A stretch of DNA of 64,000 nucleotides, taken from a virus. Within the stretch, counting starts at the first letter, position 1, and the number at the start of each line of letters is the position of its first letter. Where the stretch lies: the IMG/VR virus record IMGVR_UViG_3300010413_000025, positions 3,192 through 67,191 of that record; one strand, 5' to 3'. A program made the translations under genes and the position numbers. Under the pieces are notes generated by a model. The model was not told the DNA's origin and made no database searches. It saw nothing but the letters and a program-made list of their open reading frames with translations. Positions 25,108-64,000 of this stretch are shown here, piece after piece.

Positions 25108-25115
25108 GCCAGTTT

Positions 25116-26537: not shown

Positions 26538-26567
26538 TTCGTTTCCCCTTTCTGGTTTCGGTCGGTG

Positions 26568-26624: not shown

Positions 26625-26725
26625 CTGTTGCACCGAATGCAGGGCGGTCGGGGTCGGCGGCGGGTCGGGAATGGGCAGGATGTCGCCGCACCCCGCCACG
26701 ATCAGAATTGCCAGCAGGGCGCCCA

Positions 26726-27037: not shown

Positions 27038-27038
27038 G

Positions 27039-45479: not shown

Positions 45480-47050
45480 CAGAATTCCATGCGTTCGTCG
45501 ACTTGCGGCACCGCGCTTTCCGGGTCTTTCGTCACGAAGTCTTCCGGAACCAGCCAGTAGTTCAGCTTTTTGTTGCCGGTAGTGGTCGTTTCTTTCTTTT
45601 CGACGCCCAGATTGTGCAGCTGCTGCCACAGCCCGCTGGCAGTCGTGTTCGGGAACCGCTGCTGCTGAAGATATTTCGAAAAAGCTTCGAAATGGAACAG
45701 GAATTTGTTGTTTTCGAAAAGTACCATTCCGGTCAGTATATCACGCCGCGACTTTGCTTCGGGCGCCGTTTCGATGAAGTCCTTCAGCATAGTGCCCAGA
45801 CTGGCGGTCGACGTGTATTCATACGGGATTTCGATCACTTCCCGATTCACAAGCCAGTGCTGAATCATCTGGTCCCACATTGCATTGTTCATTCGCGGCG
45901 GCATCTTGTCCAGAACTTCAAAAACCTTTTCGCGGAATTTCACATTATTGGTCAGTTCAGCCCGCTGAAACTTCACGTCCTGCCCGTTTATCGACATGAT
46001 GTACTGCGGCGGTTCGTCAGTAACGACAGCCCCGGCAGCGTTCACCTGCACGATCTTTCGGACGCCTTCAATGTTCCAGTCTTCCCAGACCTGAACTAGA
46101 CCGCCCATAACTCCGAATTCACGGGTCTGGCATAGTGGTTTGTTGCAGACTTCCATGCAGACCGCATCCTTGCACAGATAGCCGTACTCCCGGTCTGTAT
46201 CCAGTGACTTGAAGATGGTCGCAGTGATTTCGCGCATGGGCAAGGCCGGGCTGAAGTAGTCGCCGTTCCACTCTATGACCTTGTCCTGCCATTCGTCGGG
46301 GTATTTTTTCTTTGCGTATATGGCGAACTGGAACAGTGCTTTGTTCCGCCCGCCTTCGCCGACGCCATTGTGCGCCATGGTCTGAATGCACGGCGGCCCG
46401 TCACTGAATGGAATTTCCTGCTGGTGAATTTCCAGCTTGTCGAAATCGGCGGGACTGATCCGCTTGCTTTCCGCGTAGTCCAAGAATTTTTCGAAATCAG
46501 CAATCGGCTTTCCCGCGTCGTCGAATGCGTACCGCTGCGTCATTTCGGCGTCGAAGTACGGGAGGTTTATCCAGTTCCCGACTTCACCGTTCGCGGCGTC
46601 TAGCTTTTCCTGTTTCGGGAAGATTTCGATTTTCGGGTATCCCAGCATCCTAGCCAGTTCGCCCAGCTTCGCGCGAATTTTCGCTGCGTTCGCCGGTTCC
46701 GAAAAGAAAATGTAAAGGTGGGCGCCGCCAGACTTTGACTTTGCCCAGACGATAGGGAACCCGGACCGCTTTGCATCGGTCACGAATCGTTTCACTGTGG
46801 GTTCATCGTACACGTCGAAATCAATCGCTGCGAATTCGCACGTGCCGTCGTCGTGGATCGGAACTACGCCCAGACCAGATTTGCCCGTCAGGTGGGCTTC
46901 CCATTTTTCGGTCGTTACAGGTTCGGCGACTGTTTGCGCGCGACCGCCGATCTTTCCGGACTCTTTTTGCAGGTTCCGGTCTTCCCGGTATATACCATGC
47001 GCGCGCGTCAGGCCGCTAAACAGCCGACTGAATCGTTCTATCTTGTCCAT
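45479..47050 (-). CDS. AEP-family primase/primase-polymerase with PriCT-like domain
   Basis: AIDFD, SKSGGAHLYIF, EIFPKQ, GNWINLPY, PPC...EGGRN. Confidence 0.85.
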   Translation of the reverse strand: MDKIERFSRLFSGLTRAHGIYREDRNLQKESGKIGGRAQTVAEPVTTEKWEAHLTGKSGLGVVPIHDDGTCEFAAIDFDVYDEPTVKRFVTDAKRSGFPIVWAKSKSGGAHLYIFFSEPANAAKIRAKLGELARMLGYPKIEIFPKQEKLDAANGEVGNWINLPYFDAEMTQRYAFDDAGKPIADFEKFLDYAESKRISPADFDKLEIHQQEIPFSDGPPCIQTMAHNGVGEGGRNKALFQFAIYAKKKYPDEWQDKVIEWNGDYFSPALPMREITATIFKSLDTDREYGYLCKDAVCMEVCNKPLCQTREFGVMGGLVQVWEDWNIEGVRKIVQVNAAGAVVTDEPPQYIMSINGQDVKFQRAELTNNVKFREKVFEVLDKMPPRMNNAMWDQMIQHWLVNREVIEIPYEYTSTASLGTMLKDFIETAPEAKSRRDILTGMVLFENNKFLFHFEAFSKYLQQQRFPNTTASGLWQQLHNLGVEKKETTTTGNKKLNYWLVPEDFVTKDPESAVPQVDERMEF

Positions 47051-47111: not shown

Positions 47112-47921
47112 TTAATACTCGGGTTTTCCTTCCACCGTTGTACCACCTTCGGCGTCGTCCCCGCCGTTCAGTGATTCGGTCGCTTCCTTGACTTCGCCCG
47201 CGCGGATTCTGTTGTGGAAATCCACGGCCGCGTCGAACAGGTTCTGATCCTCGACCAGTCCCGAATAGTTGATGTCCCAGCCCCACCAGCTGTTGTCGTC
47301 CTTGCTTTCGCCGACCACGCCGATGCCGTACAGGAACGCCTGCATAAAGCGAATGCCTTTCGACTTTTTCTTTATGTCGATGTCACTGTTCAGTCGCTTG
47401 GACTTTTTGGTTTGGGTCCGTTCCATGGTGATTATTGCCGGTTCATACGTGCCGTCATTGCGGACAATGATCACGTAGTGGTACCGGGTGTCGGACAGCT
47501 GATTGCCATTCGGCAGGATGTCGCGATTCTTGTCGTCGCGTTCGGTTTCCTTCATCAGTTCCAGACCATCCAGAACACCGTGTTCGGCCACGTAGCCGCC
47601 GCCCTGTTCGCGGGTCTTCCATTCCATGAACGCGCGCCGGTAGTACACCGGGACCAGCTTCAGTTCGTCCTTTTCAAGGTCGAAGATTTCCTGCGTCACA
47701 GTGTTGATCAGCATTCCTTCCTGCGCGCCTTCGATGAAACTGCCACTGGTCTTTTTCACCTGCGGCGATGTACTCTGAAGGATTCGCAGAAAAGGAATCG
47801 CGAACGAATCAGCGTCGGCCTGTTCAAGGCCCGCGTCTTCGAAATCAGCATACGCGCCGTCTTTCAGGAATGCGGGCAGGCCCGCGTCTTTCTTTGTTGC
47901 TACAGCTTTGCCTGTTGCCAT
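47112..47921 (-). CDS. ssDNA-binding/annealing-like replication protein
   Basis: IPFLRILQSTSPQV..., acidic C-terminus, highly expressed position before a terminator. Confidence 0.6.
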   Translation of the reverse strand: MATGKAVATKKDAGLPAFLKDGAYADFEDAGLEQADADSFAIPFLRILQSTSPQVKKTSGSFIEGAQEGMLINTVTQEIFDLEKDELKLVPVYYRRAFMEWKTREQGGGYVAEHGVLDGLELMKETERDDKNRDILPNGNQLSDTRYHYVIIVRNDGTYEPAIITMERTQTKKSKRLNSDIDIKKKSKGIRFMQAFLYGIGVVGESKDDNSWWGWDINYSGLVEDQNLFDAAVDFHNRIRAGEVKEATESLNGGDDAEGGTTVEGKPEY

Positions 47922-48012
47922 GTCGTTGCACCTTAGTCGTTTTAACGGTTAGGGGGAAATATGCTGTTCCCCTTCAGCGGTTTCGAAAATTACGCCCCCG
48001 GGCTGACCCCTG

Positions 48013-48591
48013 TCAACCCTTGCCCTTTTTTCCCTTGCGTTCTTTGGGTAGCACGACTTTCGAAATGTCCAGTCGAAAAATGTTGATAACGTCTTCCGGA
48101 ATCGGGTCGTCGGTTTCCAGCTGGGCTTTTGCCCACGCCTTCAGGGTCTGCGGCGGGATGTTTTCCTTCAGGGTGTAATCGAACCCCTGCAATTCCGCGA
48201 ATTCCACGGCCACGTCCTTTTCGCTGTCCGAACCCATTCCGAATAGCATAGTGATCTGGTTTTTTATGATGTCGCCATGCCCGTGTTCACGCAGCCACCC
48301 GTATGCGGCTGGTCGATTGTCTTCCTTGATGTTCACGTTAATGTCGTCTGCGATAACGATCTTTGCGCCATTGTCTAGCGCCAGTTCGGTTAATCCGACC
48401 GACTTCATCGCTTCCGGCAAGGTTTCGGTCCGCATCTTCGTGTATTCCGCATTCACGTCTTCCAGCTGTTTTTTCAGGTCCAGCAGACGCTGTTCGATGC
48501 GGTATTGCTGCCGGGCCAGTTCCACGATGTCGGACAATTCCAGTTTCGTGGGTTCATCGGTCCCTTCGGCTTTGCTGTAATCAATGGCCAT
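48013..48591 (-). CDS. Conserved replication-module protein
   Basis: LPEAM..G..EL.L..G, WLREHGHGDIIKN, PQTLKAW. Confidence 0.7.
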   Translation of the reverse strand: MAIDYSKAEGTDEPTKLELSDIVELARQQYRIEQRLLDLKKQLEDVNAEYTKMRTETLPEAMKSVGLTELALDNGAKIVIADDINVNIKEDNRPAAYGWLREHGHGDIIKNQITMLFGMGSDSEKDVAVEFAELQGFDYTLKENIPPQTLKAWAKAQLETDDPIPEDVINIFRLDISKVVLPKERKGKKGKG

Positions 48592-48592
48592 T

Positions 48593-48940
48593 TCAGTTCC
48601 CCTTCAGGTCGAATTTCAGGTTCACATAGGCGCGACGTTTCTTGTCCCAGCGCAGGACGTTTACCCTGCCCAGATTGACTTCTGCGGCCAGTGCCATGGA
48701 CAGCCCGATTGCAGCCGGGTCACCGACCGCCAGAATAAAGTCGTCGTCGGTGTATTCCTTCAGCCGCTTGCGCACTTCGTGCACGTCGTTCTGCGTCATG
48801 AAGGACACGCCGGTACCCGGGAACAATGGCGAACTGAATTCACCGAATGTCGCTGCCGGGGAAATATCGACCACCGGGACAAGGCGCCCCGATTCAAGGT
48901 CGCGTCGTTTCGGTATCTGTACCACATACACTTTCGCCAT
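48593..48940 (-). CDS. Conserved hypothetical protein
   Basis: VYVVQ...A.FG...DFILAVGDPAAI...LRWD. Confidence 0.65.
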   Translation of the reverse strand: MAKVYVVQIPKRRDLESGRLVPVVDISPAATFGEFSSPLFPGTGVSFMTQNDVHEVRKRLKEYTDDDFILAVGDPAAIGLSMALAAEVNLGRVNVLRWDKKRRAYVNLKFDLKGN

Positions 48941-50437
48941 TTATAGCCACTCCGCTGGTTTATCTTTCGTAATTTCGTCTGCTATGTTCTTTTTTGATCG
49001 TAGCGCGTTAATTATTTTGCTGTCAACCGTCTTTTCCGCTTCGATGTCGATATACGTCACGTTCCGTTTCTGACCGATGCGGTGCGCGCGGTCTTCGCTT
49101 TGCAGTCGGGCTTCCAGCGAAAAATCATTGCTGTAATAAATCATCGTTGTGGCAGCTGTCAGGGTCAGGCCGTAGCCGCCCGAATGCTGCTGACCGACGA
49201 AAAACTGGCAAGTCGGGTCGTTCTGGAACCGGTCTATATTTTCTTCGCGCAGATGACGGTCGACGCCGCCATGGTAGGACACAGCCGCGCCCTTGCCGTA
49301 CTTTTCTTTCAGGACGTTTTCGATTGCTTCCAGTTCGGCCCGGAACCGCGCCCAGATAATTATTTTTCCGTCCGGGTTCGCTTCCTCGACGATGTTCAGT
49401 AGGGCTTCCATTCGCGGGTTTTTCCCGGGAATCGGTTCTGACGGCGCGAATTCGTCGGTCGGCAGGAAACCGCCCAGCACCTGCTGAAGCCGCAGCAGCT
49501 TCGTCAGGACGTTTTGCACCGTGACTTCCCCTTGTCCCAGTTCGTACAGGGCTTTCGTGCGGATGTCCTTGTACAGCTTTTTCTGTTCGGCGGTCAGTTC
49601 CACCGGGTAGCGTTCGTATATCTTGTCCGGCAGGTCCAGACATTCGTTTTTCGTGATCCGGAAACTGTACGCCTGAATGTTGTCCACCAGTTCGTCCAGA
49701 TTGCGATACGACACCAGTTCTTCGAATTCGCGCGGCTTGCCCGTCTTCGGGTCGATCTGTTTCAGCTGGCGCCGGACCCATTCCGCGTATCGGTGCTTGA
49801 ACGAATAAAAATTTTCGTACCCCAGTATGGCCGTGTTCAGGAACGCGAACTGCGCCCACGCATCCATGGGGCCGTTCGTGATTGGGGTCCCGGTCATGAT
49901 GCGGCGGTACTTGGCCCGCTTGCCCAGCCTGATCAGGGTTTTCGTCCGTTTCGACCCCGGCGTTTTTATCACGGTCGATTCGTCGATGATCAGCAGCGTG
50001 GGGAACGTGTTCAGGATGCTGGCCAGATATTTGGCAGCCTTGCCGGTCATGCCCTGCCCGAATGCTTCCACGTTCATGGAAATGATCCGCAGGCTGTTTC
50101 CGGCGTCCCAGATTTTGTCCAGCGCCTGCTGTTCCGGCTTGCGCAGGGTACTGGCCCACACTGCCGCCCGGTATCCGGTCCAGTCGGGCATGTGCGCGGG
50201 GACTTCGCGCAGTATCCAGTTCCGATGCACCCCGTTCGGCGCTATCACGACCACGGCCATGATTTCCCGGCGCGCCCACAGGTGCGCAGCCGTGTCGATG
50301 CCGACCTTCGTCTTGCCAGTTCCCATGCCCATTAGCAGGGCGAAGTCGGTTTTGTCGCGGCTTTTGTGGAACACTTCGCGCTGGTGGTCGAAGGGTTCGG
50401 TCTTGTAGTCATAATCGTGGTGCATTTCGGTCAGCAT
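48941..50437 (-). CDS. SNF2-family helicase
   Basis: MGMGTGKT, IIDES, MTGTP, LLRLQQ, GLTLTAA, QSEDRAHRIGQ. Confidence 0.92.
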   Translation of the reverse strand: MLTEMHHDYDYKTEPFDHQREVFHKSRDKTDFALLMGMGTGKTKVGIDTAAHLWARREIMAVVVIAPNGVHRNWILREVPAHMPDWTGYRAAVWASTLRKPEQQALDKIWDAGNSLRIISMNVEAFGQGMTGKAAKYLASILNTFPTLLIIDESTVIKTPGSKRTKTLIRLGKRAKYRRIMTGTPITNGPMDAWAQFAFLNTAILGYENFYSFKHRYAEWVRRQLKQIDPKTGKPREFEELVSYRNLDELVDNIQAYSFRITKNECLDLPDKIYERYPVELTAEQKKLYKDIRTKALYELGQGEVTVQNVLTKLLRLQQVLGGFLPTDEFAPSEPIPGKNPRMEALLNIVEEANPDGKIIIWARFRAELEAIENVLKEKYGKGAAVSYHGGVDRHLREENIDRFQNDPTCQFFVGQQHSGGYGLTLTAATTMIYYSNDFSLEARLQSEDRAHRIGQKRNVTYIDIEAEKTVDSKIINALRSKKNIADEITKDKPAEWL

Positions 50438-52035: not shown

Positions 52036-52486
52036 ATTTTCGCACCCTTTCGTCTTTGTTTAGATTGATCACCGTCAGGCCGTTGCCGGTCCCGGTGTCG
52101 TGCTTGGCCGCTATCTCTACAGCGCGGACCGCGTCCACGCCAGCTTCCATCGCGCCCAGTGCAAAGTCGGCCCCGCTGCCCCACGCTTCGAACTTGTCGA
52201 ATACAGGCATCGGAACCATGTTGCTATCGTAGGCGGTGACCTTCCCCGTGACAAGGTTCAGCACCACCGCTTCAGAATCTTCGTCTAACGACCAGTCGTC
52301 GTCCTTGTTGCTGCCGTTCTTCAGCCATTCACAGAACCGGATACCGGCGGACAGCGACCCGGTGATTGCCACTGCGTAGTCAGTGCCACGCACGCGCCAC
52401 AGTTTTTCGCATAGCTTGCGCGCGCCCCCCGCTGTTGCCTGCCTGTCGGTGCACAGGACCCCGTCTTTCCACGCGACTGTTGTCAT
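51998..52486 (-). CDS. Ntn-hydrolase (HslV/proteasome beta-like) protein
   Basis: MTTVAW...TDRQ N-terminal Thr; AWGSGADFALGAM. Confidence 0.8.
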   Translation of the reverse strand: MTTVAWKDGVLCTDRQATAGGARKLCEKLWRVRGTDYAVAITGSLSAGIRFCEWLKNGSNKDDDWSLDEDSEAVVLNLVTGKVTAYDSNMVPMPVFDKFEAWGSGADFALGAMEAGVDAVRAVEIAAKHDTGTGNGLTVINLNKDERVRKYVSWRNWQSRGR

Positions 52487-54024
52487 CGCCGCCAGCGCCC
52501 CCCGATAATATGCAGCAGGGTTCGCTTGCCGTTCGCGTAAATCACTGCGTCGGAATGCAGCCAGTTCGACGGCCCCCGGTTGTACTGGACCCGCAGGCGA
52601 CTGTTCGTGCCGACCTGCATACAGCCTTCTTCGGTGCCCGGGCCATGGCCGTGGCCGATTATACTTTTGACGCCGATCCGCCGCAGGTTCATGATGCTTC
52701 CCCGGGACCCGTTCGGACCCAGATCGCCGTGCATCCCGGTTTCGATGCCCAGCACCATCAGGGATTCGTCCCGCTTCAGCAGGACTTTATTCACGGTCAG
52801 CAGGCGTTCGGCCCAGTAGTGGAACGGGTCGACCGTCCGGGCGCCCGCGTCGGTCATTTCCGTGTTCCGGACCATTTCCAGCGCGGTTTCCAGATAAAAT
52901 TCCATGTGCGACGGGTCCTTTCGCCAGTCGGTTTCCCGAATCCAGCGTTCCAGACCTTCGTTGTGGTTACTGGGGACCATCACGTTTTCGAACCCTGCGC
53001 CGTGCTTGTTCACGAACGCGCAGGTCAGTTCCAGTTCCTTCGGGATGCTGGCCATGCCTGCACGGTGCTTCGCCAGCTTTATAAACGGGTTGTCGCGGTC
53101 GTGATGGTTCTGCGAATAGTGGTCGTACACGTCGTGCCAGATCAGCTTTTTCGGCTTCAGAACGGCCGTGATTGATCCCGGGCCGTTGAATGTAGCCTTG
53201 ACCACGTCCGGGTCGATGAACTGCACGTGGGAATCGCCCATGATCAGGGCGGCGGCGGGCGGTGCATCTTCGACCCCGTCCGGCGTGTACTTTTTGTCCA
53301 GATCAATGAACGTCCCGTTTTGCAGGGCGGAAATCTGGCGCATAAAGAACATGTCGCCGTCGACTTCGACCACCACCGCCCCGATAGTGTGGTGGAATTC
53401 GCCGCGCTTGCCGGTCGCCGTATCGGTGTAATTTTCCACCGTAACAGCACCGGTCGTCGTCATGATTTTGGGAAGCTTGCTTTGCGGGGTCGCAATCGAC
53501 TTCAGCTGGACTTTCGGGTGCGGCAGGATGCCGGACTTGTCGCCGGTGATCGCTTCGAACCCGGTCAGGGGCTGCGTGTTCGTCGGCTGCGTGCGGATGT
53601 CACCCAGCAGGATCAGGTTCCGGTTAATGTCGGCTCGGCTGGAAAACAGGTATTCGTGCAGTTCAGGCGCCCACCAGTCGTCGTCCTGCTGCTTCTGGCC
53701 CCAGACGCTTGTCGGGTTCTTGTACCGTATCGGCACGACCACCAGCTGCGCGCCGTTGTGGGCACAGTAGTTTTCCAGTGTAGCAAGGAATTTTTTATGT
53801 ACTGGCGTCGCGTTCTGGGCGGCGGTGAAAACGTAGCGTTCGGCGGGCGGCAGTTTGCCTTCGTATTGTCGGTGGGTCGGTTCCTTGACAGGCTTCGCTT
53901 TCGACGGGTTCGCGGTCGTTTTGCCGCAGGATTTGCAGCGCCATCGGTTCTGGCGCCCCGTTTTGCGTTCCCGCCACCCATCCTTGACTAGCTTCCCCTG
54001 TTCACCGCAGTGCGGACAATACAT
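52483..54024 (-). CDS. Calcineurin-like metallophosphoesterase with N-terminal Zn ribbon
   Basis: CPHC...CKSC; MGDSH, HD, SNH, MHGD, GHGH. Confidence 0.75.
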   Translation of the reverse strand: MYCPHCGEQGKLVKDGWRERKTGRQNRWRCKSCGKTTANPSKAKPVKEPTHRQYEGKLPPAERYVFTAAQNATPVHKKFLATLENYCAHNGAQLVVVPIRYKNPTSVWGQKQQDDDWWAPELHEYLFSSRADINRNLILLGDIRTQPTNTQPLTGFEAITGDKSGILPHPKVQLKSIATPQSKLPKIMTTTGAVTVENYTDTATGKRGEFHHTIGAVVVEVDGDMFFMRQISALQNGTFIDLDKKYTPDGVEDAPPAAALIMGDSHVQFIDPDVVKATFNGPGSITAVLKPKKLIWHDVYDHYSQNHHDRDNPFIKLAKHRAGMASIPKELELTCAFVNKHGAGFENVMVPSNHNEGLERWIRETDWRKDPSHMEFYLETALEMVRNTEMTDAGARTVDPFHYWAERLLTVNKVLLKRDESLMVLGIETGMHGDLGPNGSRGSIMNLRRIGVKSIIGHGHGPGTEEGCMQVGTNSRLRVQYNRGPSNWLHSDAVIYANGKRTLLHIIGGRWRR

Positions 54025-54034
54025 GGCGACCCCT

Positions 54035-54415
54035 TTACTTTTCTTTCAATTCAAGCGCGCGAATCTTTTCCTCTGCGGCTTTCAGCCGGTCTTTCAGTGC
54101 CCTGTGTTCTTCCGTATCCGTGGCCTTGTGCGCGTCCACCTGCTGTTGCAGGAAATCAATCTGCTGATCCCGCAGGCGCAGGTCCTGCGTCGCAGTTTCT
54201 GTCTTGTACTGCGAACTGGCGGCCGCTGTCAAGGCGTCGCGCATCTGGCCCATTTGGGAAGTCATGGTGGCAGCCCACCACGCCCCGGACACCGTCACGC
54301 CTATGACCCAGATCAAAAAGGAAAACGACACAGCCGGGCGAACCCGTTCCTGTTTCGTGTGCAGTTCTTTCCAGATTTGGTCTAGTTCCTGTTTCACTTC
54401 ATCCAGATCAGCCAT
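54035..54415 (-). CDS. Membrane-anchored coiled-coil protein (lysis region)
   Basis: One TM segment plus coiled coil. Confidence 0.55.
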   Translation of the reverse strand: MADLDEVKQELDQIWKELHTKQERVRPAVSFSFLIWVIGVTVSGAWWAATMTSQMGQMRDALTAAASSQYKTETATQDLRLRDQQIDFLQQQVDAHKATDTEEHRALKDRLKAAEEKIRALELKEK

Positions 54416-54626
54416 TGTCGCTTCCACCACCCCTTCGCCATTTGAACAGGGCGACGGCGGCTGCCGGAACGCCCACTACAGTTCCCAGTGCACTGACGAC
54501 GGCCGCATTGATCAGCGAAATGTCATCGAACACGCGAAAAACGACCCACGTCAGAAGGCCATAGGTCCAAATCACTAGGATAGCGGACAGCAGCTTGTAC
54601 TTTTCCATGTACTCTATGATGTTCAT
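54408..54626 (-). CDS. Putative holin
   Basis: 72 aa, two TM helices, immediately after the endolysin. Confidence 0.6.
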   Translation of the reverse strand: MNIIEYMEKYKLLSAILVIWTYGLLTWVVFRVFDDISLINAAVVSALGTVVGVPAAAVALFKWRRGGGSDNG

Positions 54627-54627
54627 A

Positions 54628-55167
54628 TCAGAAAACCGCGCGCCGGAACCACCCTAGTTCAAACACCCGCAGATCGGGCTTGCTAGTCATTATACCTTCG
54701 TAAAAATTTTTCTGCATTTCGCGAAGGGTGATCAGCACCGCCCAGTCGACTTTTTCCAGTGCATTCAGGGCCGCGATGGTCTTCGGACCCACCACCCCGT
54801 CGTCGGTGCACGGGTGCCCGTTCGCGGTCATGGATCGCTGGGCAAGCTTCCATGCTTGTTTACTGCCCATATTTACAGCCATATCGAATATTTTCGTCGC
54901 AAGTAGCTGACTTTTAACGTCGCGGAAACGGTTCGGTGTCCAGAATGCGGCTTCATACACCTGCAAAGCCATCGGCCGGGTCATGGCCGCGATGTCGTCC
55001 GCGTCCACATCGCCGTCGCCGTCAAAATCGCCCAGCAGGTCGCCCCGCTTTTGCAGGTAGCGAAGCGAAATGCCGTACTTCGTGGCGCCGCCCGGGTCCC
55101 GTTTGTTGTTCACGTACCCGCCTTCATGTTCCAGAATATGCGGAATTGCTAAATTGAAATTTGCCAT
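54628..55167 (-). CDS. Endolysin, glycoside hydrolase family 108 with peptidoglycan-binding domain
   Basis: HEGGYVN..RDPGGATKYGIS, FDMAVNMG, DGVVGPKT, GWFRR. Confidence 0.92.
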   Translation of the reverse strand: MANFNLAIPHILEHEGGYVNNKRDPGGATKYGISLRYLQKRGDLLGDFDGDGDVDADDIAAMTRPMALQVYEAAFWTPNRFRDVKSQLLATKIFDMAVNMGSKQAWKLAQRSMTANGHPCTDDGVVGPKTIAALNALEKVDWAVLITLREMQKNFYEGIMTSKPDLRVFELGWFRRAVF

Positions 55168-55178
55168 GCCGTGTACCT

Positions 55179-58100
55179 TTATTCAGCCGTCGGAACGGTG
55201 CTTGTGAATGGTTCCATAACGCCCCACGCGTACAGTTCGCCGGTGGTGGTGTCTTGTATCCTGAAAAAGATCGGTCGACCCACCCGGTGAAAATGCAGGA
55301 TATTTACGTGGTGCCCAGCCCAGTTCGACGGGCTGCCGTTCTGCAAATTGTTGAAAATATATTGCGAATCTGGGGACGACAGGGAATAGTCGTGCACCAG
55401 CTGCGCAGGGGACCCATCATCGGACAGAATAAATAGCTTGCCCTGATCACCTGACCCCGTGCCTTCGTCGAACTGTGCGCCTACCGCGAACTTCAGTGTC
55501 AGGTTCGGGATCACCTGCGGACTTCCGGGCGAACCGGCCTTGAACACTTCAATGCCCGGCGACACGACTGTGCCGTACGGGATGCGACCCAAATATTTGT
55601 CTGGGGCATAGTCGGCGTCACTTACTAGCTGGAATTCATGAATGCACGCGTCGCGCGATTCCTGCCCCGGGCTGGTCAGGCGATGTTTCGCTAATATTTC
55701 GATGCGAAGCTGGGCGCCATTAGGCTGTAGAACCATCGCCATTAGATCATTAGGCGGAATGTTCTTGAGATAGTTGGTCGGATCATCGGCCGGGGTTTCA
55801 TATTCATAGATGAAATTCGGGCTGCCGATGTTCGGGCTTGAAATGTCGTACATGCGGATTATATAGGACAATCCGTCGCCTGCGTCGGTGGTGCCGGGAT
55901 TGAACGTGGTCCCGTCGCTGTTTTCACCCTTCACAGATTTTTGCGCGCCTAGTGTCCGCCAGTTCCGGCGTGTCCATGACACCTGCATATAGGACGACGT
56001 GGCGTACAGCGGCACCGATTTATTGTATCTACTGCTGCCTATTGTAATTTCATTCGGGCATAGCGGCGCGTTTACACGAAAGCCGTCATGGATTCGTGTC
56101 ACGTTCGTGATGGTGGCCGATCCCACGCCCAGCGCCCCGCTTTCCTGCGTCGACGGGCATATTTTCGCGGCCACGTAGAAGTTGTTCGTAAATTGTTCGG
56201 ACGAAATGCTGGCGCCGCCAAAAGATACGAACCAGACCAGCGAACCAGCGGGCCAGTCCTGCACGCGGGAATCAAGGGCGCCGCGCCAGCAATCGAACAG
56301 CCTAATGCCGGTAACTAGCGGGGACCCACCGACGCTTTCTACTGCCTGCGTGTACAGTATGAATTCACCAAAATCGCGCAGTTGATCCGGTGAATTCACA
56401 GTGGGCGGCGTTATGTATACCAGTGACAGCAGGTCGTCAATTTCACTTTCCGATAAGGCGTCCGCGTCGATCAAATCAGCCAGTGATTCACCGGGAAGCG
56501 GGTCCACATCATAATCGCCAGCCCCCTGCGTCGCGACGCTTCCGCTTAACGGGCCGGGCAAGGCTGACCGCAGCTGCCCCACCAGAACGAAGTTCGGATT
56601 CGTGCCGTTGTTTATGAATGTGCCAGTGATCGCACCGGACGCCGACGTTGCTTCATGCGTGTAAAGGTCGTATTCGTCGCCAGCGCCACCGGTAAGACGC
56701 GGCAAGGCTGTGATGCGCGGCGTTTTGTCCGGATTGTCCGGGTCTTGCAGCTGCATCAGTCGCGGCGTTTCGAATATCACTTGGTCTTCCGGGTCTTCGG
56801 CAGTAACTGTCTGCGTCGGTGCCGACCAGCTGCTGTCGATAGGGTCGTGGAAACTGGCCGCCTGCGTGGTGAACACGTCTTCAACTGCGTCGATGGTGAT
56901 TTTGTTATTCAGTAGTTCGCCGTAATTGACGCGCGTCGCGCGCATCAGCAGGTCGGTGATGCCGTACAAGTCCCACGACAGCAGGAACAGGTCGCCCGGC
57001 TTGATGGTGTACAGTTCGCGGTTCACTGTCAGGGTAGCTTTCGCCAGCGGCGTGGCCAGATTGCGCAGGTCCCGCCATGCGATGTAATTCGCAAGCGCGG
57101 CGTTCTTGACGCCCATAAAATTTTCGGTAACAGTGATGGGCGCGCCCTGAATGATTTTGTTCGCCATGTCCTGCGCCAGCCCGTAGCTTGTCGCGTAGTT
57201 CTTGCCGGGGTCAGCGTACTGAACCCGAACAATGTTTTTCGTTTCGGACCACGATCCACGGCTGAATTCGACTTTCTTGCAGTTGGTTTCGTCGATTGAC
57301 AGCAAAGACGACAGCGGGCTGGGAATATCCGCTTCGCGGATCAGTTTGAACGTGTACTGGCCGGTCGTGATGTCGCGCTGAAGAACGCCGTCGCACTGCC
57401 GTTCGATTTCCTGAATGATCTGTTCAGTTTTTTTCGGGTTATCCAGCAGCGCGGAAAATCCGTTTCCTTCCGCCGCCAGCGTAGCGCCCACAGCGGCCAG
57501 TGTCGTGGTGTCGATGTCGCCAGTCGACCGGGCCAGACCCCATTCGGTGTTCGTCAGGATTTCATACAGGACGTTCATCGGGTTCGCGTCAAAGTTATTT
57601 ATCAGCGCATCAGCGCCCAACGATAGGCCGTCGGGAATGCGGCGAACCACGAACTTGAACGGACGCAGCGACGGACTGTTGCCGATGTAAATTTGTTCCG
57701 CTACAAGGTACGCCGTCCCGCGATATGCGGGCAGGATGTCAGGGGAAAACGTCACGGCCCCTTCCAGATAGGTGCTTTTCACCTGCGTGCTACTGCCGGG
57801 AAACATGGTAAACGTGCCACTGATTCCGCCACTGTCCTGACCGAACAGGGTCGGTTCGTTGACTGTCACTGACCCGCTTGCGACCGCTGACAATGGGGAC
57901 GTATCGTAAATAGATTCGTCGTCGACAAGAATTTGCATCAGGCCGTCGTCGGCGCCAGTCATCGGACCACGGCAAAACGCGAACTGAATCCCGACGTAGT
58001 ATTTATAGCCGACCGTGACTTTCTTCGATGAAAACATGCCGGTTTTGATCTTTTCGCGAATGCGTTCCGTGCGCAGATCACCGTACCAGATAATATTCGG

Positions 58101-58274
58101 CGCCGACAGCTGGACCGTTCCCCACAGTAGTGGGACCACGCGCCCTTCAGTGGCGGTCGGAAAATTGAAATCGCCCAGTCCTGACGGCCGGGCGTTTTCG
58201 ACTTCGGGTTTCGGTGCGAACAGTTCGGAAAGAATGAACGACGCGACCCAGATCGCTAGATATACCCAAAACAT
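55179..58274 (-). CDS. Tail tip / central tail protein (Phage-tail_3-like)
   Basis: FPTATEGRVVPLLWGT, PAYRG, DANP..LYEILTNTEWGL; SP-rich C-terminal extension. Confidence 0.85.
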   Translation of the reverse strand: MFWVYLAIWVASFILSELFAPKPEVENARPSGLGDFNFPTATEGRVVPLLWGTVQLSAPNIIWYGDLRTERIREKIKTGMFSSKKVTVGYKYYVGIQFAFCRGPMTGADDGLMQILVDDESIYDTSPLSAVASGSVTVNEPTLFGQDSGGISGTFTMFPGSSTQVKSTYLEGAVTFSPDILPAYRGTAYLVAEQIYIGNSPSLRPFKFVVRRIPDGLSLGADALINNFDANPMNVLYEILTNTEWGLARSTGDIDTTTLAAVGATLAAEGNGFSALLDNPKKTEQIIQEIERQCDGVLQRDITTGQYTFKLIREADIPSPLSSLLSIDETNCKKVEFSRGSWSETKNIVRVQYADPGKNYATSYGLAQDMANKIIQGAPITVTENFMGVKNAALANYIAWRDLRNLATPLAKATLTVNRELYTIKPGDLFLLSWDLYGITDLLMRATRVNYGELLNNKITIDAVEDVFTTQAASFHDPIDSSWSAPTQTVTAEDPEDQVIFETPRLMQLQDPDNPDKTPRITALPRLTGGAGDEYDLYTHEATSASGAITGTFINNGTNPNFVLVGQLRSALPGPLSGSVATQGAGDYDVDPLPGESLADLIDADALSESEIDDLLSLVYITPPTVNSPDQLRDFGEFILYTQAVESVGGSPLVTGIRLFDCWRGALDSRVQDWPAGSLVWFVSFGGASISSEQFTNNFYVAAKICPSTQESGALGVGSATITNVTRIHDGFRVNAPLCPNEITIGSSRYNKSVPLYATSSYMQVSWTRRNWRTLGAQKSVKGENSDGTTFNPGTTDAGDGLSYIIRMYDISSPNIGSPNFIYEYETPADDPTNYLKNIPPNDLMAMVLQPNGAQLRIEILAKHRLTSPGQESRDACIHEFQLVSDADYAPDKYLGRIPYGTVVSPGIEVFKAGSPGSPQVIPNLTLKFAVGAQFDEGTGSGDQGKLFILSDDGSPAQLVHDYSLSSPDSQYIFNNLQNGSPSNWAGHHVNILHFHRVGRPIFFRIQDTTTGELYAWGVMEPFTSTVPTAE

Positions 58275-58276
58275 TT

Positions 58277-59098
58277 TTATTCCTTCGTCAGCTGTTGTTT
58301 GTTGAACGGGTTAATCGACGGCACGAACGGAAACCCGCCATAATTTAGCACATTATTGAACTTCTGCGCGCAGGTAGTCACGGAATGATCGCACCCCTGA
58401 TACGCGTACAGGGTGCCACCAGACACGTTTTGCTTGAACGGGTACAGGATGCGAACCTGCGTCCCTGACTGGTCGATGATCAAGCGCGATTCCGATCCGT
58501 CCGGCAGCGAAACATACCCACCGATGAACGGGGACCCGGTAGTTGGCAGCGCCTGAATGGTCAGCAACACGTCATCGGTTACGCCTAGCACCTTTCCGCT
58601 GTGCAGGTAGGACCCTTCAGACAGGCCGCAGCCGCTGTCGTACAGAATATGGTTGCACAACCCCTGAAAACTGAACCGTGGCATTTCCCGGGTGAACAGT
58701 TCGTTGTTCGGTATGCACCGCAATTCGCAGATTTCGTCCTTGAATGCGACACTGGCCACGTATCCCGCGAACATGATAATCGACGCGGTGGCCGGGACCG
58801 AATTCGGCTGGATGCGGTACACGGTCACGTTCATGATGTACGACGGTTGCACGGCGATGAAGTTCGTCGCAATTACGTCGTCGGTGGGAATCTTGATGGT
58901 GATCGAAGTCGACTTTTGTTCCTTCGCTTCCTGATATGCCGTGCGCTTTATGGCCACCGGCGTGTAGTCGACACCGCTGTATGTCACGGTCCCTTCGGAA
59001 CTGGTCCGACGGTAGGTCGTCCCCGAAATCTGGAATTCGTACAGTTCAATCGGGCGCGAATCTTCTATGCTGACTTCAAGCTGGTCTAAGGTACTCAT
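58277..59098 (-). CDS. Tail assembly protein (DUF2163/BR0599 type)
   Basis: PIELYEF, C..ILYD..CG, GCDH...C..KFNN..NYGGFPFVP. Confidence 0.85.
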   Translation of the reverse strand: MSTLDQLEVSIEDSRPIELYEFQISGTTYRRTSSEGTVTYSGVDYTPVAIKRTAYQEAKEQKSTSITIKIPTDDVIATNFIAVQPSYIMNVTVYRIQPNSVPATASIIMFAGYVASVAFKDEICELRCIPNNELFTREMPRFSFQGLCNHILYDSGCGLSEGSYLHSGKVLGVTDDVLLTIQALPTTGSPFIGGYVSLPDGSESRLIIDQSGTQVRILYPFKQNVSGGTLYAYQGCDHSVTTCAQKFNNVLNYGGFPFVPSINPFNKQQLTKE

Positions 59099-60978
59099 AC
59101 GTCATACGCCCCGCTAACCGGTACATTTATTTCGCTGTCGATCTGGTCGCCCATTAGATCGGTCCATTTATGTAACAGGTCCACGGTATCGCTGTCAAAT
59201 CGCGACTTGATCATGAACTGAATCGACAGGACGTTTGCGGCGGTGAAGTCCATCGGAAAGGTCGGCGAAACAGACAGCCGTTCCACATCGGTGGATACTT
59301 CAGTGCTGGAAACGATGTCTAAAAACATGTAAGTCTGACCGTCTTCCCAGTTGTGCGGACTGCCAATAGGAAACGGGCTGGCGACCGACGGCATGTTGTT
59401 CGGGTCAAACTGTATCACGATGGTGGTGTACGGTTCGCGCGACTTCATGAACTGCGTGTACCCGACGTTTGTCACGTCTATGGACCCTGACCCGACACTG
59501 ACGGCGGCCTGCAATTCCAAATCCTTGCCGAAAGTCGGCAAATAAAACGACGTTTGCTTGCCGTGCAGTGCATACAGCAGGTTCCGCACTTCCCAGCTTT
59601 TTTGTGCCGTTTCCACGTTCCAGCGTTTTTCGCTGGTGGGCGTCGACCTGTCTTCGGTGGACGACTGTGCAATTTCGCCGGTATCGCCGTCGATTCTGGT
59701 GATCTTTTTCCGGAAGTTTTCCCGAATTTCGTTGTCCATAAAGTTCAGGTCGTCGATCACAGTGCGGCCATTCCACGATTTGAACGCCGTCGCGTCTTCG
59801 GTAGCGCGCGCATCGTTGTCGACAGACAGGAACGACATTGTCACTTTTTGCTGTCCAGCTGGCAGGCGGGATCGCGCCACGCCATCGCTGACCACGCCCG
59901 GGACCACAGGGACCAGCACCGCCTGCCCGGCTGTATACGCGTTCTGAATGCCCGACGTGAACGTGACCTGCGCCGGGGACGCCGACACCGCGCTGATTTC
60001 CAGTGTGTCGGCAGTGCGATTCCCGTCCGCGTCGTATGCAATCAGAACCGCCAGACCGCCAACGCGGAATTCAGCAAAATCCGTCGACGTGATCGAAACC
60101 ACCGTGTCACTGATCACCGCATTAGCCGTCAGTAGTCGCGCATCCCACCACATCGGAACGCCGAAAACACGGCTGTGCCAGTCGAAAATAAACGAATTGA
60201 ATTCATTCCGATCATAATCGCGCGGCAGTAGTGCTTCGAATTCGATTTGCTGACGTGGAAACCGGCGAAGTGCCACGCGCTGTTCAGTGCCGTCGGCCGC
60301 CTTCATAATGTCGGTTTTCCATACCAGCCGTTCTTTGACGCTGCCAGTCGGCGAAAAACCGTACAAAATTATGCGCGTTCCGGTGATCGGAACGCTGACG
60401 CTAGTCGTGTCAAAGGCGAAGTCCAGTGTCCCGTTGATCGTAGGCGGACCCGACGGGGAAATTTGAACACTTACCACAAAAGACGTTTGCGCCACAATAG
60501 TTTTCGGTAAAGTGGGCAGGTTCAGGATAGTGATACCGCCGCCAGCATTGTTCGTGAATGTCGTCCATGTGCGGTCGTCAGTGCGGTAGGCACTGTACAG
60601 TTCAAGGTCCTTCAGAATGTTCGACACGACGTTGCCCAAGTCTAGCCGCTGCGGCTTAACGTGAATTCGTTCGAACCAGTCGAATCCGATCCCCTGCCCG
60701 TCGTATGGCGCCTTGCCTATATTCTTTTCGCGGGCGTGGCGGTTCCCCCGCTGCGTATTCGCAAACACGTCGACGATGTTCTGCGCACGAAGTTGTGTCG
60801 GCCGAAATACAGCGTTTGACACTTCAAACGGGCCAGACACATGCGGCAGGGGATCAGGGTAAGGTAGCACCATTGTTCCGGGCGCCACCTGTTTGACCTG
60901 TTGTGTCGGCCAGTGCGAAGTCGATTCCGCGAAAGTGATTCGCAGCGTCGACGAAAATGTGCCTTTGAATGTAGCCAT
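59095..60978 (-). CDS. Distal tail / virion structural protein
   Basis: ERL.WKTD.....GTEQR.ALR..PR; LYALHGKQ.SFYLPT. Confidence 0.75.
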   Translation of the reverse strand: MATFKGTFSSTLRITFAESTSHWPTQQVKQVAPGTMVLPYPDPLPHVSGPFEVSNAVFRPTQLRAQNIVDVFANTQRGNRHAREKNIGKAPYDGQGIGFDWFERIHVKPQRLDLGNVVSNILKDLELYSAYRTDDRTWTTFTNNAGGGITILNLPTLPKTIVAQTSFVVSVQISPSGPPTINGTLDFAFDTTSVSVPITGTRIILYGFSPTGSVKERLVWKTDIMKAADGTEQRVALRRFPRQQIEFEALLPRDYDRNEFNSFIFDWHSRVFGVPMWWDARLLTANAVISDTVVSITSTDFAEFRVGGLAVLIAYDADGNRTADTLEISAVSASPAQVTFTSGIQNAYTAGQAVLVPVVPGVVSDGVARSRLPAGQQKVTMSFLSVDNDARATEDATAFKSWNGRTVIDDLNFMDNEIRENFRKKITRIDGDTGEIAQSSTEDRSTPTSEKRWNVETAQKSWEVRNLLYALHGKQTSFYLPTFGKDLELQAAVSVGSGSIDVTNVGYTQFMKSREPYTTIVIQFDPNNMPSVASPFPIGSPHNWEDGQTYMFLDIVSSTEVSTDVERLSVSPTFPMDFTAANVLSIQFMIKSRFDSDTVDLLHKWTDLMGDQIDSEINVPVSGAYDV

Positions 60979-60979
60979 C

Positions 60980-61966
60980 TTAGGTCGTCACTTTTTTGTA
61001 CGCTACCCCGAAATTGTACGACTGTTCCTGATCATAGGATAACCCGTTGTTGCCTTTGCGCGTGATCGGGAAAACCACCCAAGTGTCAGCGCCTACCGTC
61101 ACTTCCTGCGCGGTAATTAGGCCGTACATGTTTATCCAGCGAATGTCGGGAACGTAACCCATTAAGGCGTAAGTGTCCGGCGCCACAAACGTGTTCGCGT
61201 AAAACAGGGGGATGGGGATCAGGGGCTTGAAGCCATTCAAGTCGCTGCTGCGATTAGCCATAAACTGCACGTGCGCGCCACCGCGCCAGCCGCCGGGCGC
61301 AAGTTGCCCTATCGCGTCGCCGTCATCGTCCGGCGTTGTGTATCCGCTGTAGTTGCGAAAATATTTCGTATTCGCATCGTATAGGCCAGTCATACCGGTG
61401 ACATGCAGTCCAGCGCCGCGAACCGTGCTGCTTAAATTCAGGCCGTCGAAGTGCGCTTGGTGCTGCGTGCTTGTTGGGTTGTCAATCGTCGATGCTGTCT
61501 GCTGCCAGTAGTGCGTGTAGGCGTACGCGCCACCTTTCAGGTCACCCAACAAAAACGCATTCCCGAAACCAAAATGCCGATATAGACCAGAACTTATTTC
61601 AACGACCACGTGGCAGTAGGTATCGTCTTCGAAAAAATGATACGACGGAAACGGCCCTGTCATGATGTTGCAGTATCGACAGGACGTGATCGTGCTGCTG
61701 GTAAATTCGCAAGCGGTCTGACTGGTCCATACCACGTCGCCGACATAGCCGCCGATCATAGCCACGCCCAAATATCCCGACGCGTTGTCCCACTGGACCT
61801 GTATCAAACGCGACATGGTTTCTGGCGATGTCGGTTTACTCCATACGGCGCGCCGGTTTGTCGCGTTGAACAAATTGTTCGTCCAGCCGGGCGTACCCGT
61901 CAGGAACGTGTTCAACTTCGACATTAAGTCGTCAAGGTCTGTCGCTGATCCGCTTTGATAACTCAT
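60980..61966 (-). CDS. Virion tail structural protein
   Basis: MSYQSGSATDLDDLMSKL...YRHFGFG...TWVVFP; ATG 61966. Confidence 0.75.
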   Translation of the reverse strand: MSYQSGSATDLDDLMSKLNTFLTGTPGWTNNLFNATNRRAVWSKPTSPETMSRLIQVQWDNASGYLGVAMIGGYVGDVVWTSQTACEFTSSTITSCRYCNIMTGPFPSYHFFEDDTYCHVVVEISSGLYRHFGFGNAFLLGDLKGGAYAYTHYWQQTASTIDNPTSTQHQAHFDGLNLSSTVRGAGLHVTGMTGLYDANTKYFRNYSGYTTPDDDGDAIGQLAPGGWRGGAHVQFMANRSSDLNGFKPLIPIPLFYANTFVAPDTYALMGYVPDIRWINMYGLITAQEVTVGADTWVVFPITRKGNNGLSYDQEQSYNFGVAYKKVTT

Positions 61967-61968
61967 GT

Positions 61969-63051
61969 TTAAGTGTCCCTTACTGCCATGAACGACCATG
62001 GGTCGGTTCGGTGTACGTTTTGGAAAATAAGATACCGCTGCGCTGGACTTACGCCGTAGTCCCATATTTCGTCTTCGGCGGTTATGCCGCCGTTGTTGTG
62101 CATCCAGTATATTCCGTCCAGTTCGCCCAGCATCTGATAACTTGGATCGTTCCAAAGAATCGACAGCGGCCACAGGGTTGTGATCGGGTCAGGGCTTCCG
62201 GGCGTCTGCACCAGATACGCGGTCGGCGTGCCGCCAGCACTCGTCGCATGGAATAGGTCGTAGAATGTTCGTGTCGTATCCGTGGTCCTGTCGTCCGTAT
62301 TGTATAGGGTGTAATTGTAAGAACATATCGGCCACATTTGCCGCTTGTATACTGCGCCGAAATTGGAACCAGTTCGATAGCCGTTTTTGATCGGGTACCA
62401 CTGACCATCGACAAATCGCACGTACAGACACGATTCACCAGTTCCCGGGACTTCGTCACTGTTACCCATCGGAATGGCGCCGGTGCTGAAGTCCAGTGAA
62501 TTGCTATTAAACGCAAACGTGTTCGTCCAGCTGCTACCCATGACAGCCAACGGATATGGGTACTCCGATTCCGTAGCGAATGGGTTAATGAACCCGGCGT
62601 ACATCCACTGGTAGGCGGTACCAGTCTTCACGACTATGATCACGCGGCGTTCGTTCGCCCAGAACCAATACGACATGGACGTGTTCTGCAAAGGGATGTA
62701 AACCGATTTGCTGGCGTCAGGCTGATCGGCGAACAGCACGGAACCTTCCGGGCTGCCGGGGCTAAATCCGGTGAAACCTTTCAGTGCCCAGCCATAAATA
62801 CTGCCGCCCGGGTCTTCATAAGACTGAATGCCGAAGTAGAAAAGCCGCGACGGGGACCCGCCGTTGCTGGCGTCCCCTTCAAAGATCATTTCCTGAACAT
62901 TCGGCGACGGATACACGACAGGGCTTCCCGCCGGGGTCGTATCGCGCACCGCCGTATATGGCGACGGCGACCCGACGGAACCCGTCAGGAAGTCCCGCAG
63001 GTGAATCATCAGGTCCAGATAATCAGTTGCTGTTCCAGTTGCTTTTGCCAT
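61969..63051 (-). CDS. Virion tail structural protein (SP-rich)
   Basis: MAKATGTATDYLDL...YPYPL.V.G...LGELDG; related to the downstream gene. Confidence 0.75.
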   Translation of the reverse strand: MAKATGTATDYLDLMIHLRDFLTGSVGSPSPYTAVRDTTPAGSPVVYPSPNVQEMIFEGDASNGGSPSRLFYFGIQSYEDPGGSIYGWALKGFTGFSPGSPEGSVLFADQPDASKSVYIPLQNTSMSYWFWANERRVIIVVKTGTAYQWMYAGFINPFATESEYPYPLAVMGSSWTNTFAFNSNSLDFSTGAIPMGNSDEVPGTGESCLYVRFVDGQWYPIKNGYRTGSNFGAVYKRQMWPICSYNYTLYNTDDRTTDTTRTFYDLFHATSAGGTPTAYLVQTPGSPDPITTLWPLSILWNDPSYQMLGELDGIYWMHNNGGITAEDEIWDYGVSPAQRYLIFQNVHRTDPWSFMAVRDT

Positions 63052-64000
63052 TAGCTTAATGCCCTTTTAACTGCGTCAGGATTCGTCTGAATCACGTTTA
63101 GAATCGCTTTTGTGCCCTGCGCGCTTTCGATTGCGCCGACCATAGACGCCGGGTCGACCACGTTCGTGATATTCACAGGAACGTCGACCTGCGGCGCCTG
63201 ACCGCCACCCATACCGCTGGTGGGAACCACTGTGCCGTCCTGTTTCGGAATGAACAGTTCCGGCTTTCCGGTTTCGCCCACCATGGCCGCCTGACCCGCC
63301 TGCAAGGGTCCGCCGTTTGCGCGCGCCGCGAAGGCACCCCCGATGCTTGTCAGAATGCTGCCGAATCCACCGCCAGCTGCACCGCCTGCCGCGCTGAAAA
63401 GTTTCTGCAATATCATATTCGACAGGGCTTCGGCTGCCATCTTCCGCAGCGAATCGGCGAATCCTTTCACCATGCCATCCAAACCGCCTTGGAACGGATT
63501 AAACAGAAAATCCGCGAAGGTGGACTGGATGTTGCGCGCCGCCTGTATGCCGAATTGTTCCATTGCTTTAGCGGCCGGGTCAAGTTTCTTTTTCGATTCA
63601 GCCAGATCGTCGTTCGCCTTCGTGACCGCACGACCGAAAGTTTCCGCGTTAATAGCGCCCTTGTTCAGCAGGTCCGTGTAATGGATTACGGTCGCGTTGT
63701 ATTCTTCCTGCGGCGTGCGCAGGGATTCCAGCAGGTCTTTCCCTTCCTGCATCAGTGCGATGCGCTTTTGTAGTTCGGGGTTCGCGGCGTTGTAAGCTTC
63801 GCCCGCCTTCGTGATCGCAGCCGCCGCCTGTTCTTCGCTGATCCGGTCGGACAGCAGCAGGGTATTGATCTTGTCCAGTTCCTTTTCGTACACGTACAGG
63901 GGGTCGACAGCGGCCTTCAGGGATTCCGCCTGCTGATCCAGCGCCTTCGCCAGCTTCGCCGCCGCCTTCGCTTCAGCGTCCAGTTCCGCCTGCGTCTTGC
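63051..64000 (-). CDS. Tape measure protein (5' part outside window)
   Basis: Ala-rich helical repeats; ARANGG...VGETGKPELFIP...NITNVVD C-terminus; frame open to the window end. Confidence 0.88.
   Translation of the reverse strand, partial: KTQAELDAEAKAAAKLAKALDQQAESLKAAVDPLYVYEKELDKINTLLLSDRISEEQAAAAITKAGEAYNAANPELQKRIALMQEGKDLLESLRTPQEEYNATVIHYTDLLNKGAINAETFGRAVTKANDDLAESKKKLDPAAKAMEQFGIQAARNIQSTFADFLFNPFQGGLDGMVKGFADSLRKMAAEALSNMILQKLFSAAGGAAGGGFGSILTSIGGAFAARANGGPLQAGQAAMVGETGKPELFIPKQDGTVVPTSGMGGGQAPQVDVPVNITNVVDPASMVGAIESAQGTKAILNVIQTNPDAVKRALS

Follow-up and report, generated by a model that had tools for sequence, protein, structure and literature searches.

Serine-proline motifs are enriched on the exterior virion proteins of an uncultured siphophage clade that carries a candidate glycosylation cassette

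The window analyzed here is a 64,000-nucleotide stretch of viral DNA (bases 3192–67191 of the 67,191-base IMG/VR record IMGVR_UViG_3300010413_000025), in which the Ser-Pro (SP) dipeptide is over-represented on exposed virion proteins and in which a four-gene cassette encodes putative glycan-modifying enzymes. The ends of the record overlap by 144 bases, giving a genome of ~67,047 bases that is circular or circularly permuted. Nearly all coding sequence in the window is on the minus strand. Annotation of window proteins with Pfam (50 open reading frames, ORFs) and PHROGs (30 ORFs) identified a siphophage with TerS, TerL, portal, a Mu-F-like protein, scaffold, a Gp13-like capsid, tube and tape measure. 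A megablast search of cultured phages with the tail region gave no match, and no cultured member of the clade described below came to light; in the phage collection the tube reached at best 35.5% identity.

The tail tip module has the same gene order as in Pseudomonas phages DMS3 and JBD30, and all of the virion genes described here are on the minus strand. The baseplate hub or tail tip protein (1031 amino acids, aa; 55179–58274) matches Pfam Phage-tail_3, and phrog_1101 covers its residues 1–796; nine of its 15 SP dipeptides lie past this match, in the C-terminal 235 aa. In the available portion of the JBD30 structural report (PMC11445458), the place of the hub in the gene order corresponds to gp53 and that of the distal tail protein (627 aa, six SP; 59095–60978; phrog_1082) to gp49. 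The upper baseplate protein (273 aa; 58277–59098; Pfam Phage_BR0599 and phiJL001 Gp84_N; phrog_778) has one SP and is not enriched. Two phrog_687 paralogues follow: a gp48-like partner in a lateral tail-fiber heterodimer (328 aa, one SP; 60980–61966; alignment A2), whose start we set at MSYQSG, and a gp47-like protein that forms the lateral tail fiber (360 aa, nine SP; 61969–63051). The latter matches chain 8rk3_c of the JBD30 baseplate in the Protein Data Bank (PDB) with E=2e-20 over residues 1–174, which together with the gene order identifies a JBD30-type baseplate. The C-terminal part of the tape measure (63051–64000; 737 aa in the whole genome; tape-measure PHROGs) served as an interior control. 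The opposite end of the window contains the N-terminal 307 of the 401 aa of the tail tube protein (2–922; Pfam Phage_tube_2; six SP), a 165-aa possible tail terminator encoded immediately upstream of the tube (915–1412; no Pfam or PHROG match) and the major capsid protein (345 aa, four SP; 3740–4777; Pfam Gp13-like, E=3e-89). The 165-aa protein has three SP versus 0.65 expected, and these are not conserved, the L001 orthologue having none.

A preliminary description of this DNA, made by inspection of the letters, had counted SP by hand and proposed that the dipeptide marks exterior virion proteins. We reproduced its counts for the hub (15), the gp47-like protein (9), the distal tail protein (6), the visible 307 aa of the tube (6) and the capsid (4), and found that the complete tube also contains six. 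Zero SP was confirmed in PolA, TerL, the SNF2 helicase (531 aa), a 513-aa protein, the scaffold (268 aa) and the visible tape measure, and the complete tape measure has none either. Expected numbers were then computed from the S and P content of each protein, a check that the same description had called for. The excess was clear for the hub (observed/expected 15/5.38, p=5e-4), the gp47-like protein (9/2.48, p=1e-3), in which SP is densest, the tube (6/1.47, p=4e-3) and the capsid (4/0.97, p=0.017), and weak for the distal tail protein (6/2.96, p=0.08). Pooling eight exterior proteins (3530 aa), a set that was partly picked after the counts were seen and in which the 273-aa and 328-aa members hold one SP each, gave 45 SP versus 16.4 expected (z=7.1). 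In contrast, the other 90 ORFs (16,906 aa) contained 30 SP versus 34.3 expected. The excess is thus confined to exposed virion proteins, as proposed, and SP has the distribution of a sequon that is over-represented on its substrates and neutral elsewhere.

Virion proteins are richer in serine (8.4%) than the rest of the proteome, and together with the partly post hoc choice of proteins this might suggest chance or a composition artefact of Ser/Pro-rich tail proteins. We regard that explanation as effectively refuted. The expectation already takes the composition of each protein into account, and none of 20,000 within-protein shuffles reached 45 SP (maximum 36). Moreover, the excess recurs in 95 tube homologues of at least 50% identity among the matches listed, and in the related genomes G001, G006 and G019 at different GC contents (50% in G006 and G019 versus 58% in the window genome, G000).

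When all dipeptides expected at least 3 times in the eight exterior proteins were compared, SP was the strongest outlier. Pro-Ser (PS, 17/16.4), Thr-Pro (TP, 15/17.0), Asp-Pro (DP, 13/12.1) and Asn-Pro (NP, 10/9.5) were at expectation, Pro-Gly (PG) was near it and Gly-Pro (GP) was depleted (6/16.5). These controls rule out a general clustering of loop residues; with PS, TP, DP and NP at expectation, a shared preference of Ser and Pro for loops does not account for the SP excess. A DNA-level motif was ruled out as well: the 12 different hexamers that code for SP do so at frequencies close to those of codon usage, so that no DNA motif lies beneath it. The context of the dipeptide is itself biased. 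Gly occupies position −1 in 16 of the 45 SP, and over 165 SP sites in 25 virion proteins from four related genomes it does so in 47 (3.1-fold), with Glu, Gln and Asp favored after the Pro (Glu 4.0-fold).

The placement of the motif was examined in an AlphaFold2 model of the tube with a predicted local distance difference test score (pLDDT) of 89.8, for which the best Foldseek matches were 8xan_A and the P74-26 and T5 tail tubes. All six SP fall in modeled inter-strand loops, one of them directly before a short helix, and four lie in a beta-rich domain (~residues 84–178) that comparison with PDB 8xan_B shows to be an insertion. In solved phages, inserted domains of tube proteins point outward, an example being the decoration domain of the JBD30 major tail protein (PMC11445458). 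A helix N-cap as a general explanation of SP was ruled out by the model, in which just one of the six tube sites precedes a helix. The motifs had been described as short loop insertions; the loops hold for all six tube sites, but insertion does not hold for the gp47-like protein. Relative to its homologues DMS3-42 and AchV4_0016, seven of the nine SP are substitutions, other residues occupying these positions, one SP lies in a four-residue insertion and one falls at an alignment gap.

Loop placement of this kind is also what a purely structural motif would give. In the main rival reading, G-S-P-(E/D) would form a rigid, self-capping turn, the Ser hydroxyl bonding to the backbone and Pro fixing the geometry, and this clade would have taken it up in exposed loops between strands for particle stability or protease resistance; we consider this possible but somewhat unlikely. 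Gly at −1 and Glu, Gln or Asp after the Pro make a capping-like context, which presumably resembles capping-box and SPXX turns, and the modeled positions of the six tube sites agree with it, including the one before a helix. However, turn or capping logic predicts higher TP, DP and NP, and none of the three is raised.

Conservation of the sites bears on both possibilities. In eight metagenomic relatives of the gp47-like protein (60–74% identity) six of the nine SP are invariant, and the hub retains 14 of its 15 SP dipeptides in all three relatives at 54–59% identity; of the six SP serines in the distal tail protein, only one is invariant among relatives. Over seven alignable families, Ser is invariant at 29 of 42 SP sites versus 67 of 244 other Ser (odds ratio 5.9, Fisher p=5e-7), whereas the difference for Pro (31/42 at SP sites versus 88/143 elsewhere) is not significant. 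The serine is therefore under unusually strong constraint. Between more distant relatives the sites move. The hubs of the window genome and G019 have 15 and 12 SP and share only three at 40% identity, the gp48-like protein has one SP in the window and six in G019, and the gp47-like protein has nine and seven, of which six are shared. SP density is thus maintained through site turnover between distant relatives, and serine constraint combined with turnover at constant density is the pattern that a functional motif would show. The strict positional conservation seen at closer range in the hub and the gp47-like protein would suit a structural turn; the turnover in the hub fits selection on the number of motifs instead. 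The capsid shows both kinds of site. In an alignment of 15 capsids, SP at sites 83 and 171 is limited to the five clade members, outgroups having SA, SD, SG, AT, TA and others, and every capsid, outgroups included, has SP or TP at site 251, which favors a structural role there. In our preferred reading SP, mostly as G-S-P-(E/Q/D) in inter-strand loops, is a selected surface feature of the capsid, the tube decoration domain, the lateral baseplate arms and the hub tip.

We then determined where the SP-high state occurs. When 120 tube homologues among the matches listed were binned by identity to the window protein, SP observed/expected was 3.35 (80–100%), 3.55 (65–80%), 3.59 (50–65%) and 3.03 (42–50%), and 1.23 below 42% identity. 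In a tree of 185 distinct tube proteins, 106 leaves with 3–9 SP form one clade with support of 1.0 and a long stem; the 79 leaves outside it have 0–3 SP, and a sister lineage represented by tube P0222, on a 65-kb contig, is SP-low. High SP is therefore one old and stably kept character of a large uncultured clade whose near-complete records are ~64–67 kb. In the window genome, G006 and G019 the excess is confined to virion proteins. As a side observation, TP is scarce in most SP-high tubes (mean 0.1–0.8 per protein at 50–80% identity; 3.2 in the six closest) and commoner in many SP-low tubes (up to 7), and tube site 166 is among those that alternate between TP and SP inside the clade.

Comparison with homologues from phages free of such glycosyltransferases, also suggested in the preliminary description, gave the anticipated result: the tails of DMS3 (9/10.9) and AchV4 (10/14.2) are not SP-rich, and neither phage carries a Maf-like gene of the kind described below. 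A generic property of this tail type is thereby ruled out. With DMS3 and AchV4 at observed/expected ratios of 0.7–0.8, a structural turn also leaves unexplained why many non-homologous exterior proteins changed jointly on one branch.

Two further sets of SP-containing sequences were noted. In G001 (23787–26285 and 26344–28590), G006 (52149–53663 and 53982–55460) and G019 (44555–46453 and 48003–50267), genes for large proteins very rich in SP lie between those for the capsid and the head-tail connector, for example a 492-aa protein of G006 with 15 SP versus 2.95 expected. They have no counterpart in the window genome and are probably head fibers or decoration proteins. Just outside the window start (genome bases ~2111–2907), an 800-base gap between the tube and tail chaperone genes, absent in G019, holds only a 221-aa ORF with five SP and an implausible N-terminus, which could be spurious or mark an extra gene or an RNA.

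The preliminary description had also spoken of a set of glycosyltransferases, and the window does encode one. Four genes on the minus strand follow PolA directly, in the order Maf-like A, Maf-like B, FkbM and GT-A. Putative Maf/CstII-like transferase A (274 aa; 29060–29884) and transferase B (217 aa; 28429–29082) are paralogues that match phrog_4603, annotated as 'alpha-2,3-sialyltransferase', with E=4e-33 and E=2e-24. For transferase A, the two nearest ESM Atlas clusters carry the Pfam MptE-like family (PF01973) on only 26% and 16% of their members, which is a lead only, and a pattern scan of viral contigs revealed no close relatives. For transferase B, PF01973 is listed for the protein and many of its homologues in a protein database's precomputed table, and none of its 511 homologues has a functional name from its source. 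The AlphaFold2 model of transferase B (pLDDT 94.7) had CstII (1ro8 and 1ro7), Maf (5mu5) and the MptE pterin pyrophosphokinase (HPPK; 8sd5) as top Foldseek matches (probability 1.00, E 2e-4 to 1e-3, query TM-score (TMq) 0.40–0.59), which places the predicted structure in the Maf/CstII superfamily (glycosyltransferase family GT42) with its modified Rossmann fold. His113, His125, His156 and His167 are invariant in the family alignment (A3).

The third gene encodes an FkbM-family methyltransferase (227 aa; 27749–28432) that scores above the curated cut-offs of both Pfam Methyltransf_21 (49.4 versus 22.7 bits) and TIGR01444 (75.2 versus 37.7 bits). The fourth product is a putative GT-A type glycosyltransferase (237 aa; 27039–27752; phrog_1962 'glycosyltransferase', E=1.5e-24), similar to GT8 and nucleotide-diphospho-sugar transferases, with which the ESM Atlas groups it; the same fold is fused to MptE-like domains in viral proteins. 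PDB sequence searches with GT-A and transferase A gave nothing useful. Homologues of the GT-A protein (phrog_1962) are encoded near capsid genes in the distant phages G013 (28291–30174), G007 (59292–60083), G009 (29577–30278) and G008, and P1 PmgQ (pmgQ), annotated as 'putative morphogenetic function', is a relative with ~29% identity. The cassette order is kept in G006 and G019, whose listed proteins are 25–69% identical to those of the window. Genes for sugar-nucleotide or nonulosonic-acid pathways were absent among the window proteins scanned, so that any donor would come from the host.

Cassette and motif occur together. Two Maf-like genes are present in all three long SP-high genomes (G000, G006 and G019), each of which carries the complete four-gene cassette, and none was found in 16 SP-low tube-bearing records, three of which are rated 100% complete and the rest 15–75%. 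Maf-like genes were also absent from 11 records related through the capsid only, nine of which were examined for SP and show no excess, and from DMS3 and AchV4, in a search for which the Pseudomonas phages D3 and PAJU2 were the positive controls. With this co-occurrence and the constrained serine, the earlier proposal that SP is the acceptor sequon for glycosyltransferases of this phage stands in part. Glycosylation at G-S-P-(E/D) loops by the cassette is in our judgment the best single explanation of the sequences, although we hold it tentatively and with somewhat less than even confidence.

In this model, the serine of SP would be the O-glycosylation acceptor for the four-gene cassette in the host cytoplasm. 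The two CstII/Maf-fold enzymes would add a cytidine monophosphate (CMP)-activated host sugar, which could be a nonulosonic acid or of the 3-deoxy-D-manno-octulosonic acid (Kdo) type. The role of the GT-A enzyme would be to attach another sugar, and that of the FkbM enzyme to methylate the glycan. We infer that the cassette acts on proteins at all and that it recognizes SP, and likewise the donor sugar and this division of labor.

Several observations weigh against glycosylation of SP by the cassette or against other points of the earlier proposal. TP is not enriched in the eight exterior proteins, although Maf enzymes reportedly use both Ser and Thr and are not known to have a defined sequon. 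The gp48-like and upper baseplate proteins hold only one SP each, and the gp48 homologue is exposed in JBD30 according to the available part of its description (PMC11445458). The Pfam MptE-like scores of transferase A (16.5 bits) and transferase B (30.0 bits) are both below the gathering cut-off of 34.6. A Gram-negative host, assumed in the preliminary description, is only inferred, from an endolysin with GH108 and PG_binding_3 domains. The cassette was found in none of the closest relatives G001–G005, although these fragments stop short of the region, G001 ending exactly before it. The SP-high state arose once, and its link with the cassette is entangled with every other gain on that branch; with a single transition on the clade stem, the co-occurrence is one event that is indistinguishable from shared ancestry.

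Three Maf-bearing lineages also lack the excess. G013 encodes Maf-like and GT-A proteins right after the capsid gene, and D3 and PAJU2 encode Maf-like and methyltransferase proteins among the head-tail genes; none has an SP excess, D3 tail protein 27 being marginal (7/3.2). SP as a universal sequon of Maf-like phage cassettes is thus ruled out. SP is not the general acceptor motif of this enzyme family and, if it is an acceptor here, it is lineage-specific. These same lineages agree with a structural turn, under which the cassette would act elsewhere, on DNA, host surface glycans or a single virion protein, and would be linked to SP by descent only. In this phage the cassette is located in the replication module, beside PolA and with a Mom-like DNA-modification gene nearby, and its target may be DNA or a host glycan. 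On the other hand, the presence of Maf-like genes inside the structural modules of D3, PAJU2 and G013 suggests that enzymes of this type act on virion proteins.

The serines might instead be targets of some other trans-acting factor, such as a host kinase or glycosyltransferase or another clade-specific phage protein, or they might form a recognition element for a host or environmental protein. The exterior-only, clade-wide, Ser-constrained pattern calls for a shared pressure without naming an enzyme, and many clade-conserved ORFs are without annotation. We nevertheless consider this quite improbable, as no kinase or other protein-modifying enzyme was present among the scanned window proteins and the cassette provides the only conserved candidate enzymes.

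The Mom-like gene (34982–35800, minus strand; Pfam Mom, E=2e-18; phrog_1384) adjoins genes for a 334-aa protein with a faint DGQHR-domain match (35710–36714) and a 211-aa protein with a faint GT8 match (34210–34845). None of the three has a tblastn homologue in G006 or G019; the region thus looks like a genome-specific DNA-modification island outside the clade-wide pattern. Elsewhere in the replication module, an AEP-type primase with a TOTE-system AEP domain adjoins Pam3 gp33-like and gp34-like proteins (45479–47050 and 47112–48591, both minus strand). The 513-aa protein (52483–54024, minus strand) had been labeled a phosphoesterase; it has no Pfam match, matches phrog_1745 'DNA transfer protein' with E=1e-148 and has a weak N-terminal zinc-ribbon match.

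If SP is glycosylated as proposed, a common environmental phage lineage would have an enzyme set unrelated to that of the mycobacteriophages together with a simple, readable acceptor motif, and modified virion proteins would be predictable from sequence alone. SP would be the first sequon for Maf-type enzymes, and the genes would provide a compact cassette for site-directed protein glycosylation. The full claim, that an uncultured siphophage clade O-glycosylates G-S-P-(E/D) serines through a portable cassette and host CMP-sugars, with the first Maf-type acceptor motif and the first virion glycosylation outside actinobacteriophages, is one that we offer as a possibility and consider on the whole doubtful. 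Should SP prove purely structural, it would still be unusual: a dipeptide signature that spans a clade, is specific to one compartment and has a strongly constrained serine offers a rare and testable example of non-homologous virion proteins evolving in a coordinated way.

Among known systems, the closest structural counterpart of the tail is the baseplate of JBD30 and DMS3 (Casadabanvirus). In the available portion of the report (PMC11445458; PDB 8rk3), the order of tape measure, gp47/gp48-like pair, distal tail, upper baseplate and hub is the same. The DMS3 tail module differs in that it is not SP-rich, has no SP in DMS3-42 at the sites of the gp47-like protein and is not accompanied by a Maf-like gene.

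Mycobacteriophage virion glycosylation alters how antibodies see the particle. In the literature that we found, virion glycosylation has been shown for only a few mycobacteriophages, and in the available part of the source phage-encoded virion glycosylation is reported for Che8, Corndog and Myrna (PMC12363180). As described there, the Che8 type resembles the model proposed here in that cytoplasmic phage glycosyltransferases are proposed or shown to decorate capsid and tube, and their genes are not necessarily inside the structural module. However, BLASTP of Che8 gp108, gp109 and gp110 against six window proteins gave E values of at least 0.5 throughout (best 0.5), ruling out homology detectable by this method, and SP is not in excess in either the capsid or the tube of Che8 (0/0.44 and 2/1.17, respectively). 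The window system would thus be analogous to that of Che8, not homologous. Che8-type glycans are reportedly located at C-termini, and the host type also differs.

Maf enzymes are nonulosonic-acid O-glycosyltransferases of flagellin that modify Ser/Thr in the cytoplasm, before the protein polymerizes outside the cell. Maf (PDB 5mu5) and the GT42 enzymes CstII and Cst-I (1ro7, 1ro8 and 2p2v) share the predicted fold of transferase B (Foldseek E ~2e-4, TMq 0.54–0.59), although the window proteins are bare cores of ~220–270 aa with 13–14% identity to those structures, CstII acts on lipooligosaccharide and the same fold includes a pterin pyrophosphokinase (8sd5). In full-text literature searches, neither an SP acceptor motif nor virion glycosylation of the Maf type turned up for phages.

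A genetic parallel is found in D3 (orf7, orf12 and orf13) and PAJU2 (gp10–gp12), where a methyltransferase accompanies a homologous Maf-like gene (E 1e-12 to 2e-20). These cassettes, each a Maf-like gene, a 275-aa gene of unknown function and a methyltransferase, span 5951–9143 in D3 (L126) and 7780–9723 in PAJU2 (L127). In contrast to the window, each has a single Maf-like copy, is located among head-tail genes and is not accompanied by a virion SP excess, and neither the methyltransferase nor the middle gene shows a detectable relationship to its window counterparts. Our literature searches found no functional study of the D3/PAJU2 cassette; both phages are cultured, and they would provide an accessible system for learning what this type of enzyme modifies.

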